Shown here: positions 10,962 to 22,007 of the stretch, piece after piece
Layout of the letters: each line of letters opens with the position of its first letter
How positions within the stretch are numbered: position 1 is the first letter of the stretch
DNA from: Methanomassiliicoccaceae archaeon UBA328
GTDB lineage: Archaea > Thermoplasmatota > Thermoplasmata > Methanomassiliicoccales > Methanomethylophilaceae
NCBI GenBank assembly: GCA_002506905.1
Contig: DAYM01000004.1
Span: 16,147-80,146, forward strand
DNA length: 64,000 nucleotides
Direction: 5' to 3'
Position numbers and translations under genes: made by a program
The notes under the pieces: generated by a model
What the model was told of the DNA's origin: nothing
The model's input: only the letters and a program-made list of their open reading frames with translations
Databases searched by the model: none

Positions 10962-12854
10962 ATGTCAAGAATAATCGGAATCGATCTCGGAACAAGCAAC
11001 TCGGCCGCCTCCGTTATGGAAGGCGGAAGGCCGACCATGATCCCTTCGGCAGAGGGAACAAGCGTAGGAGGGAAATCATTCCCGTCCTATGTCGCATTCA
11101 CAAAGGACGGACAGCTTCTTGTCGGTGAGCCGGCAAGGAGGCAGGCGGTGACAAACCCCGACGGAACCATCAAGAACGTAAAAAGGAAGATGGGTTCCAA
11201 CGAGAAGGTCACGGCACTCGGAAAAGAGTACACGCCTCAGCAGATCTCTGCCTTCATCCTTCAGAAGATTAAGAAAGATGCAGAATCATACCTCGGTGAG
11301 ACCGTCGACAAAGCGGTCATCACGGTACCTGCATACTTCAACGACAACCAGAGGCAGGCTACGAAAGATGCAGGTGCGATCGCCGGATTGGATGTCGTAC
11401 GTATCATCAACGAGCCTACCGCAGCGGCACTCGCATACGGTCTGGACAAGACCGACAAAGAACAGAAGATCATGGTGTTCGACCTCGGAGGAGGAACCCT
11501 CGATGTCACTATCATGGACTTCAGTGACGGTGTGTTCGAGGTCATCTCGACATCCGGAGATACCCAGCTCGGAGGATCCGATATGGATGAGGCACTCACG
11601 CAGTACGTCCTCAAACAGTTCCAGAACGAGACGGGTATTGATCTATCGAAGGACAACATGGCCTTCTGGAGAGTCAGGGAAGCATGCGAGAAAGCAAAGA
11701 TCGAGCTGTCTACAACCATGCAGACCGAGATCAACCTGCCTTTCATCACCGCAGATGCATCCGGACCCAAACACCTGGTGCAGACCATCACCCGTTCGAA
11801 GCTCGAAGAGCTCGTCGAACCCATCGTCGCAAGATGCAAGAAATCCATCGAGCAGGCAATGAACGATGCGCACTACACCAACGACAACATCGACAAGATC
11901 ATCATGGTCGGAGGACCTACAAGGATGCCTATCGTCCAGAACTTCGTCGAGAGCATCGTCGGACCCAAGATCCAGCGCGGAATCGACCCTATGGAGTGTG
12001 TCTCCATGGGAGCGGCGATCCAGGGAGCGGTCCTGTCCGGAGAGGTCAAGGACGTGCTTCTGCTGGATGTCACGCCTCTGTCACTCGGTATCGAGACCCT
12101 CGGAGGAGTCGCAACCACTCTGATCGAGAGGAACACCACCATCCCGACCAAGAAGAGCCAGGTGTTCTCAACAGCGGCCGATAACCAGCCCTCTGTCGAG
12201 ATCAATGTGGTCCAGGGTGAGAGGAAGATGGCGGCCGACAACACATCGCTCGGCAAGTTCATCCTCGACGGTATCATGCCCGCAAGGCGCGGTGTACCTC
12301 AGATCGAGGTCACATTCGATATCGACGCCAACGGTATCATCAACGTATCCGCAAAGGACAAAGGCACCGGAAAGGAACAGAAGATCACCATCGCATCGTC
12401 CAACAAGCTCAGCAAAGACGAGATCGACGACCTTGTCAAGCAGGCAGAGCAGTACTCCGAAGCAGACAAGAAGAAGGTCGAGAACATCGAGGTCAGGAAC
12501 CAGGCCGATACCCTTGTGGCAACGACCCGTAAGACCATGGAAGAGCTCGGCGAGAAGGCGACCCAGGAAGAGAGGACCAACGTCGAGGACGCGGTCAAGG
12601 ACCTGGAAGCCGTCAAGGACAGCGACGATACCGCCGCTATCAAGACCAAGATCGACGCACTCATGAAGGTCATGGGCCCCATGAGCGAGAGGATCTACCA
12701 GCAGTCCGGTGCGCAGCAGCAGGCAGGTGCCGAACAGGCACAGCAGAGCGCGGGCGCCCAGCAGCAACAGTCCTCACAGGGCGAATCGAAGAAGACCGGC
12801 GGCAAGGACGACGGCTTCGTCGACGCAGACTATAAGATAGTCGATGACGAGTAA
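10962..12854 (+). CDS. dnaK: Hsp70 chaperone DnaK
   Basis: 630 aa. Contains [28 protein letters not shown] and a Q-rich C-terminal tail. Confidence 0.97.
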
Positions 12855-14026: not shown

Positions 14027-14059
14027 ACCCTTTAAATCAAACCTATTTTCTTTTTTGTA

Positions 14060-15307
14060 TCACATCGGGTTGATTATGCGATCCAATAGATACATCGCAC
14101 CTTTTGCTCCGAATATCGGTGATGGTCTGAAATCAACATTTGCGACCGACGGGAATCTGATATCGATGCCTTTCCTGCAGTGTTTGGAAGCCTGTTCCAG
14201 CATGGCGGTGTTCCCATCGCATAAGATCATGTTAACGAATTCCGGAAGCTCTGCGTTGATGGTATTCTCAAGATCATGTTCTTTCAGGAATTCTCTGAGT
14301 ATCTCTTCGGACCTTCCGTACTTGCTATCGTACAGTCTTATCGATACAGGGACCATCGAGAGTGATTCGAACATCCATCTGGCGAGAGGATATGCCACAG
14401 ACGCATCTGTGTCTATCGCAAATGTGTCTCCTTTGAGATCTGCCCTCATGGCATTCATGCAGAAGAATGCTCTCTTGCGATACTTATCCACATGTGTCAG
14501 GGCTTTGTTTCCATTCATTCCGGTAATCTTCTCTATGAGTCTGATGAGTGCATCTGTGGCATCGAAACCGATCGGTGAATAACCGAGACTGATCTCCTTG
14601 ATACCGTATTCTTCGGTGTAGAGTTTCGAGGTCTCGTCGGCATATTCGGGGCATAGGACAAGATCATATTCGGCGTTGACCGATCTTTTCACCTCGTCGA
14701 TCGTGCACCCCGCTCCTAAAGTGCAGATGACCTTTAATCCCATCAGGGACAGGATCTCTGTGAACTCTTCGATAACGGTCGGCCAATCTTTTTGGAGTAC
14801 GCTCAGTCCAAGGATGTTGACTGTATTCTTCTCCATGATGTGATCGGAAGGTGCCAGCAGTCTGACCATATCGGCGAGCATATGGTCTATCCCGTAGCTG
14901 AGAGGTTCGGACATCATGGAGGCATCAAGGGATATTGCCCTGGAATCCAGTTTGTTCACGGATATCGCCTTGTTGCAATCATCGCCTATCAATGATGCTC
15001 CGGGAGAGCATACCACGGCGATGAATTCCGAATCGCCTCTTCCGACAAATTCCAATGCGGACTCGATCTTATCGTATGATCCGTAAATGTAATCGGTGGA
15101 TATGATCCCCGTACAGGGGATCCTGGAGGATCCGCGATAGAAAGGAACGCCGATGTTCATGTTCTCTTTCGGGCGGGGATAGCTTTTGCTTGAGAGTATG
15201 TTCAGGTTCTTACGGCAGCCGTCCGGTCCGTGAAGTATGACCTCTGCATCCTTTATTCCTTCTATGGCCATTATTGCGCCTACGAATCCGTCAGGTCTTG
15301 CATCCAT
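14060..15307 (-). CDS. Nitrogenase component-1-fold protein (NifD/K/E/N, BchN, NflD/CfbD-like)
   Basis: 415 aa. Contains ARPDGFVGAIMAIEGIKDAEVILHGPDGC, IPCTG and AVVCSPGASLIGDD, a three-Cys pattern as in BchN/NflD-type subunits. No NifH-like gene is in the window. Confidence 0.65.
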   Translation of the reverse strand: MDARPDGFVGAIMAIEGIKDAEVILHGPDGCRKNLNILSSKSYPRPKENMNIGVPFYRGSSRIPCTGIISTDYIYGSYDKIESALEFVGRGDSEFIAVVCSPGASLIGDDCNKAISVNKLDSRAISLDASMMSEPLSYGIDHMLADMVRLLAPSDHIMEKNTVNILGLSVLQKDWPTVIEEFTEILSLMGLKVICTLGAGCTIDEVKRSVNAEYDLVLCPEYADETSKLYTEEYGIKEISLGYSPIGFDATDALIRLIEKITGMNGNKALTHVDKYRKRAFFCMNAMRADLKGDTFAIDTDASVAYPLARWMFESLSMVPVSIRLYDSKYGRSEEILREFLKEHDLENTINAELPEFVNMILCDGNTAMLEQASKHCRKGIDIRFPSVANVDFRPSPIFGAKGAMYLLDRIINPM

Positions 15308-15853
15308 TCAATCACCCCAAGAGAGCCAGCCTTCCTTTTCATTCGCGATAAGGATGTTGCTCATATATTCCAGATAATAGATCGATGCCTTGTGGGATAT
15401 GCATTCCTGAGGTATGATGCACGTCTTGAAAGGCAATCCTCTTGTCAGCATACTGTGCCCAATCACAAGGTCAGGTACTTCGGATATTATCCTTCCTGAT
15501 ATCTCCCTGATGTCGTTCCCGATGCGGATATTCAATTGTTTGGAGAAACGGGAATAGAACGGACAGCAGTTCCTGCCCATGGTCATGATGTCAACGCTTA
15601 TGACCTCTGCACCCGCATCCAAGAGGGTCTCCAAGGCCCAGTCTATTTCCATCATATCCGTTGACAGTACAGCGATACGTTTTTCGGACAGTGCCTTTCT
15701 GTAGTATTCCAATGCGGTATTGTATTTCTCATTCACGGACCCTATGGCCGGAGCAGCAAGTTCTTCTTTACCAATCTTATTGCATACGGATTCGATCCAT
15801 TCGACCGTCTGGCTATGTCCTTTGGGCAAAGGTTCTTTGAAGATATCCTGCAT
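15308..15853 (-). CDS. Nitrogenase component-1-like protein, C-terminal-domain-sized only
   Basis: 181 aa. PLPKGHSQTVEWIESV..KRIAVLST..ALETLLDAGAEVISV..PDLVIGHS resembles domain III of NifK/N-like subunits. Its TGA is followed directly, and in frame, by the ATG of the 415-aa gene. Confidence 0.45.
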   Translation of the reverse strand: MQDIFKEPLPKGHSQTVEWIESVCNKIGKEELAAPAIGSVNEKYNTALEYYRKALSEKRIAVLSTDMMEIDWALETLLDAGAEVISVDIMTMGRNCCPFYSRFSKQLNIRIGNDIREISGRIISEVPDLVIGHSMLTRGLPFKTCIIPQECISHKASIYYLEYMSNILIANEKEGWLSWGD

Positions 15854-15932
15854 CAGCGGAGAATGGAAGCTGAATAAGGTTGATGAAGATCAGAGGGAGA
15901 TCTTCGATGGATTGAAAATAAGGCTTCCGTGA

Positions 15933-16538
15933 TCATGGCATCCATATCATTGCTTCCAGGTGACGTTCTGTCTTTTTTAGGTTCGGATTCGAACTGAGAA
16001 ATTCTGCGATGATCTGTCCTTCTTTTGAATCTATGGTCACGTTTGCGAGCCTGCAGCATGATTTTATAGCATGATCTTCAGAAAAGACGAAAGGCTCGTT
16101 TATATCAACAGATGTCCAAATCGATCTTCCGTGATCTAACAGATAATCTTTTGCATTGAAGATCTTGAAATTGGGTTCGATATCCAGTTTTTTCAGAACG
16201 GAATATCCGAAATCACTGTCTTTGCGGCTCGGACCAATGTACGCGCATATGCCGGAAGACAATTCTTCTAATTTTTTCATCCCCGGTTCCCCATACATGG
16301 GAGGGCACAGACATGACAAGGCAATGTCGAATTTCTTGCCGGCGTATGATATACAGTCCCTATTTACACATTCTATGTTGTCGATTTTCGATGACGAACA
16401 TGCAGCTCTTAGTTTGTCCAGCATTTCTTCGCAGGAATCTACAGCGGTTACGCTGTGGGCGATCTCCGATAATTTGATGGCATGTGTGCCGGGACCGCAT
16501 CCCAGATCCACCGCGGAGTCTACTGGCAGATCTATCAT
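15933..16538 (-). CDS. Class I SAM-dependent methyltransferase (5' end disrupted by an in-frame TGA)
   Basis: Motif I VDLGCGPG lies only 10 residues after the first Met. The frame stays open upstream (KDIAGRYPLNPNANRVTKTIGAIGR) to a TGA at 16614..16616, which is preceded in frame by ATG-AAC-GAA-AAC-ATA starting at 16631. Confidence 0.7.
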   Translation of the reverse strand: MIDLPVDSAVDLGCGPGTHAIKLSEIAHSVTAVDSCEEMLDKLRAACSSSKIDNIECVNRDCISYAGKKFDIALSCLCPPMYGEPGMKKLEELSSGICAYIGPSRKDSDFGYSVLKKLDIEPNFKIFNAKDYLLDHGRSIWTSVDINEPFVFSEDHAIKSCCRLANVTIDSKEGQIIAEFLSSNPNLKKTERHLEAMIWMP

Positions 16539-16627
16539 TCTGCCTATGGCCCCGATTGTTTTCGTGACGCGGTTCGCATTGGGATTTAAAGGATATCTGC
16601 CGGCTATATCCTTTCATATGTTTTCGT

Positions 16628-16862
16628 TCATTTCTTCTCGAATATGAGGATCTCTGACGTATCGTCATAGTCAAAGCGGTCCATCAGATACAATTTGTTC
16701 TCCATCATGCTACGGATATATTCTTTTCCGTCTTCATAACCATGATGGTGTTTCGCGTTTTTTCCGGAATATGCATTTTCATGCAGATCTACTTCCACAC
16801 AGTGATCGTAGTTCTTTCCGAATTTGTTTGCAATGAATGTTTTCCAACCTTCTCTGTCCTTT
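16628..16862 (-). pseudogene. Startless ORF remnant of unknown family
   Basis: 77 open codons (SKDREGWKTFIANKFGKNYDHCVEVDLHENAYSGKNAKHHHGYEDGKEYIRSMMENKLYLMDRFDYDDTSEILIFEKK) with no start near the 5' end. An out-of-frame ATG (MKDRKDHKC) lies just upstream. The stop overlaps the methyltransferase ATG at 16631 as ATGA. Confidence 0.3.
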
Positions 16863-16967
16863 GATCAATTAACATTTGTGATCTTTGCGGTCTTTCATTC
16901 GAACAGTTTGTCGTAGGTCCTTCTCTGGAGCATGAATGCAGGCAATTGTATTCAAATAAATTATTTT

Positions 16968-17004
16968 ATAATTTTTAAGCTGTTTTCCTGCAGAAAATTA
17001 CAAT
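16968..17004. repeat. 37-nt direct repeat, copy 1
   Basis: ATAATTTTTAAGCTGTTTTCCTGCAGAAAATTACAAT. It matches 18453..18489 at 36 of 37 positions. A shared CAAATAAA lies 8-15 nt upstream of both copies. Confidence 0.9.
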
Positions 17005-17016
17005 TTCTATGTTATT

Positions 17017-17220
17017 TTATCGGCTCTTCGGTGTGGTCTGCGCGCGAGGCATTATCATTTCTTCACATGCCACTTTCTGCGTGTTCAGCCGATTGTATTG
17101 CTGAAAGCAGAATAGGTTTCCCGGAAACTTTTCGGGAATGTTTTTTTTGCATACCTTTGCTTCAAAATTCATTCCTTCCGGAGCGAGGCATCTTCCTTCG
17201 GCGATCTCGATATCTTTCAT
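17017..17220 (-). CDS. Hypothetical small protein
   Basis: 67 codons from MKDIEIAEGRCLAPEGMNFEAKVCKK. No recognisable family. Confidence 0.2.
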   Translation of the reverse strand: MKDIEIAEGRCLAPEGMNFEAKVCKKNIPEKFPGNLFCFQQYNRLNTQKVACEEMIMPRAQTTPKSR

Positions 17221-17445
17221 TGTTCCAATAATTGTGTTGGTGAATACAAAAACCCGATTTTGAATATAATGATTGTATTTCTGAATATAATCGCGAGATG
17301 ATAGGAACAAACAGTTTTCGATCTCCGAAAATCTTCACAGGATCTCATCACGCGGATCCAAACACGGGCCCGTCGATGAATGAAAAGAAAGTCGGTCCGG
17401 GGAGCAGGCAGAATGTATTAATATCATCAAAGGGTACCACACCCG

Positions 17446-18363: not shown

Positions 18364-18452
18364 CCGGATGAATAGTATGCGCCGGCCGGTGACGCATTTC
18401 ATGCGGACCTTCGGAGCATGAATACAGCGCCCGTACCCAGACAAATAAAATT

Positions 18453-18489
18453 ACAATTTTTAAGCTGTTTTCCTGCAGAAAATTACAAT
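18453..18489. repeat. 37-nt direct repeat, copy 2
   Basis: ACAATTTTTAAGCTGTTTTCCTGCAGAAAATTACAAT. In this copy an 11-nt AAAATTACAAT flanks both sides of the core. Confidence 0.9.
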
Positions 18490-18534
18490 AATAAAGTTAA
18501 TTTCCGACGGCCTTCCGACCGCCGGTGTATTGTT

Positions 18535-19857
18535 TCAAAGGTCCGATGAGGGAAGAGTGCCGTTCAGATACTGTTCGTATCCGTACAGGTCGAGCAGTCC
18601 GTGTCCGGAGAGGTTGAACACGATGTTCTTCGCCTCGCCGGTCTTCTTGCACTCGAGTGCCTTGTCGATCGCGGCCTTCAGTGCGTGGCAGGATTCCGGT
18701 GCGGGTATGATGCCCTCGGTGCGTGCCATGAGTACTCCTGCTGCGAACGTCTCTGTCTGATCGTACGAGACGGCCTTCACGAATCCCTGGTCATATGCCG
18801 CGGAGACCAAAGGTGCCATTCCGTGGTACCTGAGTCCTCCAGCGTGGATGGACGGCGGGATGTAGCTCGAACCGAGGGTGTACATCATCAGGAGAGGCGT
18901 CATTCCCGCGGTGTCTCCGTAGTCGTACCTGAAGTCGCCTTCGGTGAGCGAAGGTGCCGCTTTGGGTTCTACGGCGATGATCTCGCAGTCTGATTTCTTT
19001 CCTCTGAGCCTGTCTCCGATGAACGGGAAGGTGAATCCTCCGAAGTTGGAGCCTCCTCCCACGCAGGCGATGAGACAATCGGGTTCGATCTCTCCGGCCT
19101 CCAGCTGTTTCTGGAGTTCGAGACCGATGACGGTCTGGTGGAGCATGACGTGGTTCATGACGCTTCCGAGCGCGTAGCATGTTCCGTCATCCTTCGTTGC
19201 CATCTCGCATGCTTCGCTGATCGCTATTCCGAGGGATCCGGATGTGTCCGGGTGCTCTTTGAGTACCTTCTTTCCGAATTCGGTGTACTCGCTGGGCGAA
19301 GCGTATACCGTTCCGCCGTAGGTGTTGATGATTGTCGTCCTCAGGGGCTTTGCTTCGAAACTGCCCTTGACCATGAATATGGTGGATTTGATATCATAGA
19401 GGTTGGAGACCATTGCGAGGGCGGTTCCCCACTGTCCCGCACCGGTCTCGGTGGTGAGTGTGTGGATACCTGCCTCTGCGTTGTAATACGCCTGTGCCAG
19501 CGCGGTGTTTCCCTTGTGGCTTCCGAGCGGCGAGAGGTCCTCTCTTTTGAAGTAGATCCTGGCGGGCGTCTTGAGATATTTCTCGAGGCGGAATGCCCTT
19601 TGGAGAGGCGACGGGCGGTTGAGTGCTATGAGTCCGTCCCTGACCTCTTCGGGAATGTCTATGTATCTTTCTGTGGACGCTTCCTGCTGGATGATCGTCT
19701 TGCAGAAGATCGGTGCGAAGTCTTCTGGCTTCGCGGGTTCTTTTGTCACCGGGTTTAGCGGGGGCTGGAGTTTGGGGATATCTGCGGCCAGGTTGTACCA
19801 GCGTTTGGGGATATCTTCGATGTCCAGACTGATTCTTGCGTTCTCTGGGAATGCCAT
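18535..19857 (-). CDS. trpB: TrpB2-type tryptophan synthase beta-like PLP enzyme
   Basis: 440 aa. Long N-terminal extension ([13 protein letters not shown]), [16 protein letters not shown] containing the PLP lysine, and VGGGSNFGG. Confidence 0.85.
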
Positions 19858-19897
19858 GATAATAGAGATTTATGGTCCATATATAATATTTGTTACA

Positions 19898-19921
19898 TTG
19901 ATGTATATTTTTATACATCAA
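19898..19921. promoter_or_regulatory. Perfect 10-4-10 palindrome in the trpB2/flavodoxin divergent intergenic region
   Basis: TTGATGTATA-TTTT-TATACATCAA. It lies 41 nt from the trpB2 start and 83 nt from the flavodoxin start. Confidence 0.35.
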
Positions 19922-20003
19922 ATCCTTTTGACAAAAGATAATAATTTAGGCATCCCGAAAAGTATATATTGTGATTTAGGTATTCTTAAAATAAGGTATT
20001 GGA

Positions 20004-20426
20004 ATGGCAAAGATAGCTGTTGTTTATTGGTCAGAGACAGGGAACACCGAGCAGATGGCCGAGGGCGTTGCGGAAGGGATAAGGTCCGCCGGCTCCGAGG
20101 TCGCTCTCGTACCCGCGGCGGATTTCGATCCTGCCACCTGCGGGAATTATGATGCAATCGCTTTCGGCTGCCCCGCTATGGGCACCGAGGTGCTCGAGGA
20201 GGATGTCTTCGAACCCATGTACGAGAGGGCCGAGCCCTATCTGTCTGGGAAGAAGATAGCATTGTTCGGCTCCTATGATTGGGGAGACGGAGGATGGATG
20301 AGGGAGTGGGTCGACCGCGCCGAAGGCGTCGGAGCGAACGTCGTGAGCAATCTGATAGTGAATCTCACTCCCGGGGAGGCCGAGTTGAACGAGTGCAGGG
20401 AGGTAGGTAAAAAGCTGGCAGGATGA
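20004..20426 (+). CDS. Short-chain flavodoxin
   Basis: 140 aa. Contains MAKIAVVYWSETGNTEQMA and ALFGSYDWGDGGWM. Confidence 0.85.
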   Translation: MAKIAVVYWSETGNTEQMAEGVAEGIRSAGSEVALVPAADFDPATCGNYDAIAFGCPAMGTEVLEEDVFEPMYERAEPYLSGKKIALFGSYDWGDGGWMREWVDRAEGVGANVVSNLIVNLTPGEAELNECREVGKKLAG

Positions 20427-20667
20427 ACACGCGTATGATCGCCATGGGCGGCAGAGTGTATTCTGCCGTCCGGCGGGGTACCGGCCGTCTCAGCAAGGCC
20501 GGACCCCGTATTTTCCGCATAGATTGCTCTATAGTTCGCTTAAGATCTGATAACAGGGCCTCTAAGGTTCGAGGTCGTTGCCTCATTTGCTAATATATCT
20601 TGAAAAGCATCCTTTCGTTCCTTACAATGTGTGAAAAAGTTGCAATCGAATGTAATTATTTTCAACA

Positions 20668-21024
20668 TTGCATTACAAGAAATTCAAATATCTATGTTCG
20701 GGAATCCCGAGAGGACCTGATTTTCGATCAGTTGATGTGGGTGCAGTTTCCATACGTACAACGAATGGAAAAGCCCCGGAATTCACTCAATTGGAGATAG
20801 ATTTCGTTGTGAACAAAGGGAACGAGTGCATCTACATCCAATCCGCTTATTCCGTTCCCGACGCAGAGAAGCACGATCAGGAGATAAGGCCCTTCCTGAA
20901 GGTCGGAGATTCTTTCCGGAAGATCATCGTAGTGAACGGAGATGAAAAGCCCTGGGTCGACGACAACGGCATAGTGGCTGTCGGTGTCAGAAGATCTCTT
21001 CTGGATGAATCGCTGATCGGGTGA
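20668..21024 (+). pseudogene. C-terminal fragment of an AAA_14/DUF4143-type ATPase
   Basis: Only the tail is present (LEIDFVVNKGNECIYIQSAYSVPDAEKHDQEIRPFLKVGDSFRKIIVV). There is no Walker A region upstream. Confidence 0.6.
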
Positions 21025-21058
21025 ATTCGGACGGTCGTATGCGGTAGAACATGAGATG

Positions 21059-21100
21059 GTAATCCAAATTTATTGCAATAATGCAGTAAATTTGGATTAC
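21059..21100. repeat. 14-bp perfect inverted repeat (strong hairpin) between convergent genes
   Basis: GTAATCCAAATTTA-ttgcaataatgcag-TAAATTTGGATTAC. The loop can pair further (TGCA/TGCA). Confidence 0.8.
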
Positions 21101-21188
21101 ACACAGGTCACACATCCCATCAACATTGTCCGAGGAAAGGACCGAGCCGTTCCCCTGAGTCGGAGGTCCGCCGCTTTTGCGGATGTGT

Positions 21189-21758
21189 TCAGAAGATCCT
21201 GTAATACAATCTCCCGTAGCATTTGCATGGGGCTCCGCACATGGGGCAGTCGTGTCCCTTGGGGGATGTGACGAATTGGTTCCAATAACCTATGAGAGCG
21301 AAGGAACGGGTTATTCCGAGTGTGTTCCTCAGGATATGGTCGATGTTCGCGTGGCCGTGGACGTCTTCCCAGGCCATTGCGGTCATGATCTCAGCTCCAT
21401 CTCTTTCAAACTGTGCCAGACACGCTTCCGACATGATCCTTCCTACCCCGAGCCCTCTTGCGTTCTCGGATACGGATACCGAATCCAGAAGCCCTATCTT
21501 CTTTTTCGAAAGGAGCATCTCGCGCTCGGGGGAATGCGGGAGTCTAAGTCTGTCGTCGACCTCTTCCGGACCGAATTCCTTGCAGATGGAGAATCCCAGA
21601 ACATGGCCGTTCTCACGTGCCACCATGCAGAATCCGTCCTTCGGTTCTATCATTTCCTCGAAGTCCTCTGCGGACAGATAATCGGAGCCCAGTTCCCTGA
21701 GGGAGATCTTCAGGGCTTCCGGGATATCTTCGGATGTGATGAGACCGACCGTTATCAT
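21189..21758 (-). CDS. GNAT family N-acetyltransferase with Cys-rich C-terminal tail
   Basis: ARGLGVGRIM acetyl-CoA motif and a C-terminal HDCPMCGAPCKC. I chose the start at MITVGL; the ORF is open to 21821. Confidence 0.7.
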   Translation of the reverse strand: MITVGLITSEDIPEALKISLRELGSDYLSAEDFEEMIEPKDGFCMVARENGHVLGFSICKEFGPEEVDDRLRLPHSPEREMLLSKKKIGLLDSVSVSENARGLGVGRIMSEACLAQFERDGAEIMTAMAWEDVHGHANIDHILRNTLGITRSFALIGYWNQFVTSPKGHDCPMCGAPCKCYGRLYYRIF

Positions 21759-22007
21759 GCGGGATGGGAGGCACGGGCATAATATGATGGTTTCGGCCGA
21801 CTGCAGAAAAGGTCGTATCAATTGATATGAAATCTGTGTGACTTCGGTTGGGCTGTAGGTTTATCGGAAAGTCTGTCGAGAGGTTTCCGGAGGTGTTGAT
21901 CGGCGTGGCGGATATTTTTGAGGGATCTGCGAAGGAAAAGAATTGGGTCGTTTTTATAAAGGAATAAAAGGTGAACGGAAGGTCCGAAGACCCTCCGTTC
22001 GTTTCGA

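Follow-up and report, generated by a model that had tools for sequence, protein, structure and literature searches.

A probable relic of a fused nitrogenase-like operon in a low-GC insertion of a Methanomassiliicoccales genome

A cluster of minus-strand genes in the methanogenic archaeon UBA328 (Methanomassiliicoccales; Methanomethylophilaceae) raised the question of whether two nitrogenase-fold proteins and a neighboring S-adenosylmethionine (SAM) methyltransferase act together in one operon or came to lie side by side by accident. The cluster is found at positions 14,060–16,862 of a 64,000-nt stretch of contig DAYM01000004.1; this whole stretch is called the window below. A preliminary description, made from the letters and the open reading frames (ORFs) alone, listed a startless remnant, a methyltransferase, a 181-aa protein and a 415-aa protein, all of which were recovered on the minus strand at the positions given. 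It proposed that the 415-aa protein was either the genome's CfbD, and so part of coenzyme F430 synthesis, or an additional paralogue whose link to a methyltransferase pointed to an uncharacterised reductive modification. Our analysis indicates that the block is probably the decaying 3′ end of a fused-type nitrogenase-like operon, a gene-decay relic representing neither a new pathway nor an F430 enzyme. The partial decay that had been suspected was evident both in a fusion gene cut down to its last 178 residues and in a nonsense codon in the methyltransferase. The features are listed in Table 1.

The 415-aa protein matched PF00148 over positions 3–398 of the 399 in the model with 152.5 bits (gathering cut-off 28.6), and therefore belongs to this superfamily. 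Among curated models, it scored 65.8 bits with BchB, 49.6 with the NifD subfamily, 45.3 with NifE and 40.9 with NifK. It remained below every NCBIfam equivalog cut-off for NifD/K/E/N, VnfD/K, AnfK and BchN/B/Y/Z, which range from 324 to 1229 bits (490 for BchB). A sequence search of the PDB also returned BchB as best match (3aet_B, E 1e-13), with weaker matches to chains named "Nitrogenase" (9d9u/9fmg, E 4e-7). Homologues of 413–430 aa were 44–58% identical in Methanomethylophilaceae and other Methanomassiliicoccales, and 31–37% identical in Methanospirillum, Methanosarcina, Methanolobus, Desulfosarcina and Clostridia. The phylogeny that had been proposed with NifDKEN, BchNB and CfbD was obtained by maximum likelihood with NifD/K/E/N, BchN/B/Y/Z and the genome's own CfbD as references. 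It grouped the K-like proteins of a fused NflHD–NflK family in one clade, with a support of 100 in the Shimodaira–Hasegawa-like approximate likelihood ratio test (SH-aLRT), apart from NifK/N and BchB/Z/Y. The 415-aa protein nested within this clade, beside loci L017, L050 and L016. As predicted from the tree and the curated scores, it is the NifK/N/BchB-like, beta-type partner (NflK) of an uncharacterised fused system, which reverses its first assignment as a BchN/NflD/CfbD-type subunit.

The 181-aa ORF scored 33.4 bits with PF00148, covering only positions 223–352 of 399. When complete fusion proteins were searched against the window with tblastn, this ORF aligned to residues 497–671 of a 674-aa fusion (40% identity, E 3e-38), and nothing detectable in the window upstream of it matched the first ~500 residues. 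What survives of the fusion is thus its last ~178 residues; the NifH domain and D-like domains I–II, with the conserved C...HGPxSC...TTCxxGxIGDD motifs, are gone. The best curated match of this stub was BchN, and in the tree it joined the D-like domains of the loci beside which NflK was placed (L017, L050, and L016; SH-aLRT 99). By these homologies, the 181-aa piece is domain III of an alpha-type (NifD/E/BchN-like) subunit; the earlier reading of it as domain III only of a nitrogenase subunit stood, and its attribution to the NifK/N type did not. Because the stub and NflK fall in matching D and K subclades, they are the remains of one ancestral NflHD–NflK pair. Within the limits of the search, short proteins that resemble the stub and stand alone did not form a family in a collection of 5.8 billion proteins, where only a cluster from its own species was found.

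Homology to the fusion begins at the first codon of the stub, and the frame stays open for only 12 codons farther upstream. The TGA of the stub is followed directly by the ATG of NflK (...TGG GGT GAT TGA ATG GAT), so that the tight packing first described holds at this junction, whereas a 79-nt gap separates the methyltransferase from the 181-aa ORF.

Table 1. Features of the locus, with counts of nonsynonymous to synonymous changes (N:S) and the derived pN/pS for four genes.
Feature	Position	Strand	Basis or remark	N:S	pN/pS
Intact ORF for a predicted 415-aa NifK/BchB-like subunit, NflK of the fused NflHD–NflK family	14060–15307	minus	PF00148 and tree	13:5	0.74
181-aa ORF, putative C-terminal domain III remnant of a NifH–NifD/E-like fusion (NflHD)	15308–15853	minus	tblastn, PF00148 and tree		
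Spacer with the putative deletion or recombination junction that took ~1.5 kb of the fusion gene	15854–15932		Homology edge		
Class I SAM methyltransferase pseudogene	15933–16631	minus	TGA at codon 6 (16614–16616); 201-aa ORF from internal Met at 16538		
N-terminal fragment of an AAA_14-type ATPase pseudogene	16628–16935	minus	Similarity to own-genome paralogue		
AT-rich non-coding stretch from the island genes to terC	16936–17445		GC 0.40; holds one direct-repeat copy		
Low-GC insertion between dnaJ and terC	14027–17445		3.4 kb; congener synteny, GC and layout in 22 contigs		
dnaK				3:8	0.11
dnaJ				2:10	0.06
terC				3:6	0.15

The lost part is a regular component of the family. Seventy-nine NflK loci were collected from GTDB species representatives, 70 of them with readable upstream sequence. 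At all 70, a full D-like domain lay directly upstream of NflK, and a NifH domain was detectable upstream at 69. The NifH and D-like domains were encoded in a single ORF of ~700 aa at 65 of the 70 loci, and were adjacent at the other five. In ISO4-G1, a Thermoplasmatales metagenome-assembled genome (MAG) and a Methanoplasma MAG, a gene of 674–706 aa with Fer4_NifH and Oxidored_nitro domains directly precedes the K-like gene, the ends of the two overlapping or abutting. Three Cys are conserved in each of the D-like and K-like subunits. ABC_tran genes were present within 10 kb at 53 of the 79 relatives and FecCD genes at ~41. A census of 113 neighboring ORFs from 16 diverse loci gave ABC_tran (10), FecCD (9), ABC2_membrane (7; ABC-2 exporter components), Peripla_BP_2 (5), CobN (4), ChlI/D-type AAA or VWA (3–5), DUF1638 (3) and CbiZ (2).

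Measured against this family, the 415-aa protein and the stub fall inside its K-like and D-like clades, respectively, and the conserved K-like Cys are kept, but the full upstream ORF of ~700 aa has lost its ~500 N-terminal residues. The pair also stands in a small inserted island beside pseudogenes, without flanking FecCD-type importer or chelatase genes, and no importer was found between positions 11000 and 21000 of the window. As had been noted for the window, no NifH-like reductase gene accompanies the pair: none was detected anywhere on its contig (C12), and PF00142 matches above the cut-off were confined to contigs C6 and C5.

The parent system would be an ATP-driven reductase with a tethered NifH module, in which electrons might pass from this module to an iron–sulfur cluster held between the D-like and K-like subunits. 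The gene neighbors of the family point to an imported metal-tetrapyrrole or chelate, possibly a corrinoid, as the putative substrate. A deletion or illegitimate recombination within the 3.4-kb segment would have removed the NifH domain and D-like domains I–II, including all cluster-ligand motifs, and would have left the 181-aa stub of domain III and the intact NflK gene. The same junction presumably set these two beside two unrelated pieces, the nonsense-bearing methyltransferase and the dead AAA_14 fragment. With the NifH module and all D-like ligands missing, the encoded set cannot perform the reductase chemistry. That NflK has kept its reading frame would reflect how recent the loss is when set against the divergence of the family. 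The adjacency of the genes is most readily explained by a deletion or recombination junction within an inserted island, and not by operon design. The locus also cautions annotators that a "nitrogenase component 1" ORF, even when intact, can be no more than an orphan relic.

Comparison with congeners showed how the island is set in the genome (1.42 Mb in 14 contigs, 99% complete). In the congeners G002 and G003, the terC orthologue starts within ~40–55 nt after dnaJ, so that the 3.4-kb segment between these two genes represents an insertion. Its GC content of 0.449 lies among the lowest 2.3% of equal-sized windows of the genome (mean 0.516, sd 0.027), and the contrast with dnaJ (0.58) confirmed the AT-richness that had been judged by eye. 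The host is a gut-type methanogen, in which the block forms a small island of foreign DNA. The closest family members were 56–58% identical and came from Methanomethylophilaceae-type archaea; as even the nearest known relative reaches only 58% identity, the lineage of the donor is unsampled. The congeners contain no orthologue of this NflK; their own K-like copies are 35–38% identical to it and 29–31% identical to the copy on contig C5 of UBA328, and thus form a third clade. Fused NflHD–NflK systems therefore appear dynamic in the Methanomethylophilaceae, with three clades distributed over this genome, its congeners and relatives by gain, loss and decay.

The truncated layout was identical in 22 contigs from other assemblies (JGI, ENA, NCBI, and Logan). 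Eleven of these were aligned with the window, and were 99.4–100% identical to it without indels. Changes in NflK were predominantly nonsynonymous, and the excess over dnaK, dnaJ and terC taken together (8:24) was significant (Fisher p = 0.002). This shows that NflK is under relaxed selection in the sampled strains.

The methyltransferase is a member of the class I SAM-dependent enzymes (PF13649, 43.1 bits against a gathering cut-off of 27), with motif I present as VDLGCGPG. The upstream start, an ATG at 16631, shares an ATGA overlap with the stop of the preceding frame, as first described, and the coding frame extends to it; the frame is not intact, however, owing to the early TGA. This TGA aligns with a conserved Trp of the sole close homologue, P0122 (37% identity), and is fixed in all sampled strains. 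The stub, NflK and the methyltransferase all end in TGA, and the dnaJ stop is polymorphic, with TAA>TGA in one strain. Since TGA is an ordinary stop here, the codon represents a nonsense mutation; recoding as Trp or selenocysteine was rejected on the same grounds.

The P0122 gene follows a Peripla_BP_2–FecCD–ABC_tran operon, and a paralogue in the genome itself (C2:123627–124424), 24% identical to the window's methyltransferase, follows a FecCD permease gene, indicating that the methyltransferase family is importer-associated. More generally, a small methyltransferase family was observed as the last gene of Peripla_BP_2/FecCD/ABC_tran operons in Methanomassiliicoccales (C2:121099–124424; L047:2880–6714). 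The window copy shares with these importer-associated enzymes the common SAM-binding fold, but has a nonsense codon and no adjacent importer. The nearest curated model was CpaM (NF043040), with which the window copy scored 32.8 bits and its homologues 45.2 and 25.9; these scores are far below the cut-off of 180, and the window methyltransferase is thus not a CpaM member.

Methyltransferase homologues were absent within 10 kb of NflK at all 79 loci at E ≤ 1e-6. With the threshold relaxed to E ≤ 0.05, two of 96 loci had matches of 29–47% identity, ~7.5 kb away and on the opposite strand. The family was also absent from the 25 commonest neighbor families of the 16-locus census, and no Nfl gene lay near the two methyltransferase homologues examined. 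The gene neighborhood is therefore not conserved with respect to the methyltransferase, in contrast to the fusion upstream of NflK, and the functional link that the preliminary description had envisaged was not supported, given these absences, the nonsense codon and the truncated upstream fusion. The link of the methyltransferase to the Nfl genes is accidental.

Several observations weigh against a simple relic. Of the 97 columns conserved in the family, NflK retains 96, and its conserved Cys (C31, C65, and C100) are all present; the stub retains 11 of 12 conserved columns, and neither showed a stop or an indel in any aligned strain. The population sample is small, consisting of 11 contigs with linked haplotypes. 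The stub (N:S 3:3, pN/pS 0.26) and the methyltransferase (2:2, 0.28) gave low ratios on counts too small to interpret, and the obvious ATPase pseudogene fragment had a single polymorphism (SNP) in 306 nt, so that SNP counts are noisy at this scale. Judged from the conserved residues, NflK and the stub may have a residual function, and contig C5 encodes a second NflHD fusion with which NflK could in principle work in trans. An unlikely yet serious alternative is accordingly that the orphan NflK, with or without the stub, is functional, either paired in trans with the C5 fusion or as a lone cluster- or tetrapyrrole-binding protein. The intact frame, the three Cys and the abutting stub stop and NflK start would agree with this, as would the second fusion gene. 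Nevertheless, NflK is only 34% identical to the K-like partner on C5, so that cross-pairing would need a widely diverged interface; every one of the 70 readable relatives has its own partner in cis; and the skewed N:S ratio fits poorly with constraint. At a population divergence of 0.2–0.6%, an intact 1.2-kb ORF is expected under neutrality too, and the high retention of conserved columns in NflK and the stub indicates a truncation that is young on the time scale of the family. A more specific version, in which the island is the remnant of an importer–methyltransferase–NflHD–NflK module whose NflK was kept for work in trans with the second fusion or as a stand-alone binder, is clearly less probable still. 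If NflK were shared in trans, it would provide the first example of paralogous nitrogenase-like systems that have a subunit in common.

The decay of a fused operon is also favored over a real operon in which nitrogenase-fold proteins and the methyltransferase together reduce and methylate a tetrapyrrole or small molecule. The methyltransferase family and NflHD–NflK are each found beside FecCD-type chelate importers, which makes an ancestral importer–methyltransferase–Nfl neighborhood conceivable, and the top NCBIfam match of the methyltransferase, although far under its cut-off, is the corrinoid-protein-associated CpaM. This operon is nonetheless very improbable in view of the neighborhood counts on both sides given above, the fixed nonsense codon and a reductase devoid of its NifH and catalytic domains. 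The truncation could also be sought in an error of assembly or binning, as the genome is a draft with many N-runs, but no N-run falls within the insertion and the same junctions recur in the 22 contigs; such an artefact can practically be dismissed. Equally little credence is left for the 415-aa protein as the CfbD of coenzyme F430 synthesis. The two share the PF00148 superfamily, a methanogen host, an HGPxGC-type motif and the lack of ligands for the iron–molybdenum cofactor. However, the CfbD model TIGR03282, with a cut-off of 268.4 bits, gave this protein 23 bits when the protein itself was scanned and 15.7 when the genome was searched. The genome search for CfbD and NifH/CfbC-like genes that had been suggested recovered the true CfbD at C6:158185–159231 (385 bits), with a NifH-type, CfbC-like gene ~2 kb away (C6:161305–162051), in addition to the NflHD/NflK set on C5. 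The tree also put a wide distance between CfbD and the family K clade. The CfbD system has one catalytic subunit, with CfbC as a separate protein, whereas the family in the window consists of a D/K pair with a fused NifH. CfbD identity was therefore rejected, and of the two options first offered for the 415-aa protein it is that of an additional paralogue that held.

The startless remnant upstream of the methyltransferase, listed at 16628–16862, extends to an ATG near 16935. Over ~77 residues, it shares 32% identity (E 1e-10) with the N-terminus of an AAA_14 ATPase of the same genome, which itself scores 57 bits with PF13173 (AAA_14). The alignment stays in one frame throughout and has a gap of 3 residues toward its end. 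The fragment contains two in-frame stops, reads GWKT in place of the Walker A GKT and ends at the position of Walker B; it scored below every Pfam cut-off, including that of PF13173. The genomic context of P0122 suggested that the remnant could be the C-terminus of an ABC ATPase, an idea that was rejected as BLASTP found no such similarity and AAA_14-type paralogues matched instead.

The non-coding stretch between the island genes and terC had the highest SNP density of the region in the population sample, 16 sites in 510 nt, and most of these were common to the same three to four strains, a pattern that suggests a divergent haplotype block. A direct repeat of 35–37 nt, AATTTTTAAGCTGTTTTCCTGCAGAAAATTACAAT, which contains a small palindrome, flanks terC with copies at 16968–17004 and 18453–18489, and these two copies were the only ones in the whole genome. 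A second insertion relative to the congeners, in which terC is directly followed by the orthologue of 21189–21821, covers 18364–21188 and contains trpB2, a flavodoxin and a small ORF (20668–21024) without Pfam match. The direct repeat may be a trace of past recombination linked to the two insertions on either side of terC. An inversion that would have split one DUF4143/AAA_14 gene into 16628–16935 and 20668–21024 was considered and dropped, since the orientation of terC relative to dnaJ is the same as in the congeners.

The fused family is already known to exist, and is uncharacterised; the window adds a degenerate member. The family was noted in Archaea, Firmicutes, and Deltaproteobacteria (Dos Santos et al., 2012; PMC3464626), and a "fused nifH/nifE" was mentioned in Ca. 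Methanomassiliicoccus intestinalis (Borrel et al., 2014; PMC4153887), while a 2026 Chemical Reviews article on nitrogenase-like (NFL) systems made no mention of fusions (PMC13474568). Literature searches for a characterised function of the family gave passing mentions only. The dark-operative protochlorophyllide oxidoreductase BchN/BchB (NFL Group V) is among the closest known systems, BchB being the nearest curated and PDB match of the 415-aa protein and BchN the nearest curated match of the stub, although the BchB score is far under its cut-off and BchB, BchZ, NifK, and NifN all fall outside the family K clade (SH-aLRT 100). A tie to tetrapyrroles is common to this oxidoreductase, the Group VI NflHDK of Elusimicrobia (PMC13474568) and the relatives of the window family, which have tetrapyrrole-related neighbor genes. 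The context census, with its FecCD-type importers, ABC-2 exporters, CobN-type chelatases and CbiZ, adds to what is known of the parent family, whose function is the real question.

Some further observations concern other members of this family. The second set in the UBA328 genome (C5:133233–136800) consists of a NifH–D-like fusion followed by a K-like gene. Its fusion contains a run of 129 N inside the D-like domain, with the frames on the two sides differing by one base, and the set adjoins SufC/SufB-like genes, as judged by eye from ORF translations. In a Desulfomonilaceae locus (L126), a cobalamin riboswitch (11837–12028, 79 bits) was found on the strand of NflK, ~570 nt downstream of this gene, where it precedes a 346-aa ORF; the other bacterial locus (L127) gave no riboswitch match. 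The fusion gene of ISO4-G1 (L016:5881–8001, CP013703.1), called as one product of 706 aa, has an in-frame TAG at "DGTLP[TAG]GFTQT", a position occupied by Lys in the window stub (LPKGHSQT) and by Gln in L017. As the order decodes pyrrolysine, this TAG is a candidate pyrrolysine site or a site of read-through. Finally, NflHD–NflK loci were present in seven entries (L069, L070, L073, L075, L085, L086, and L103) labelled as Ruminococcus, Bacteroides ovatus, Lachnospiraceae, Bacteroidaceae, Firmicutes and Prevotella hominis ("cleanbin" isolates). L069, the entry of this set that was included in the tree, clustered tightly with the Methanomassiliicoccales locus L071 (SH-aLRT 100), which suggests that these bacterial-labelled loci are mis-binned archaeal contigs or the result of recent transfer.

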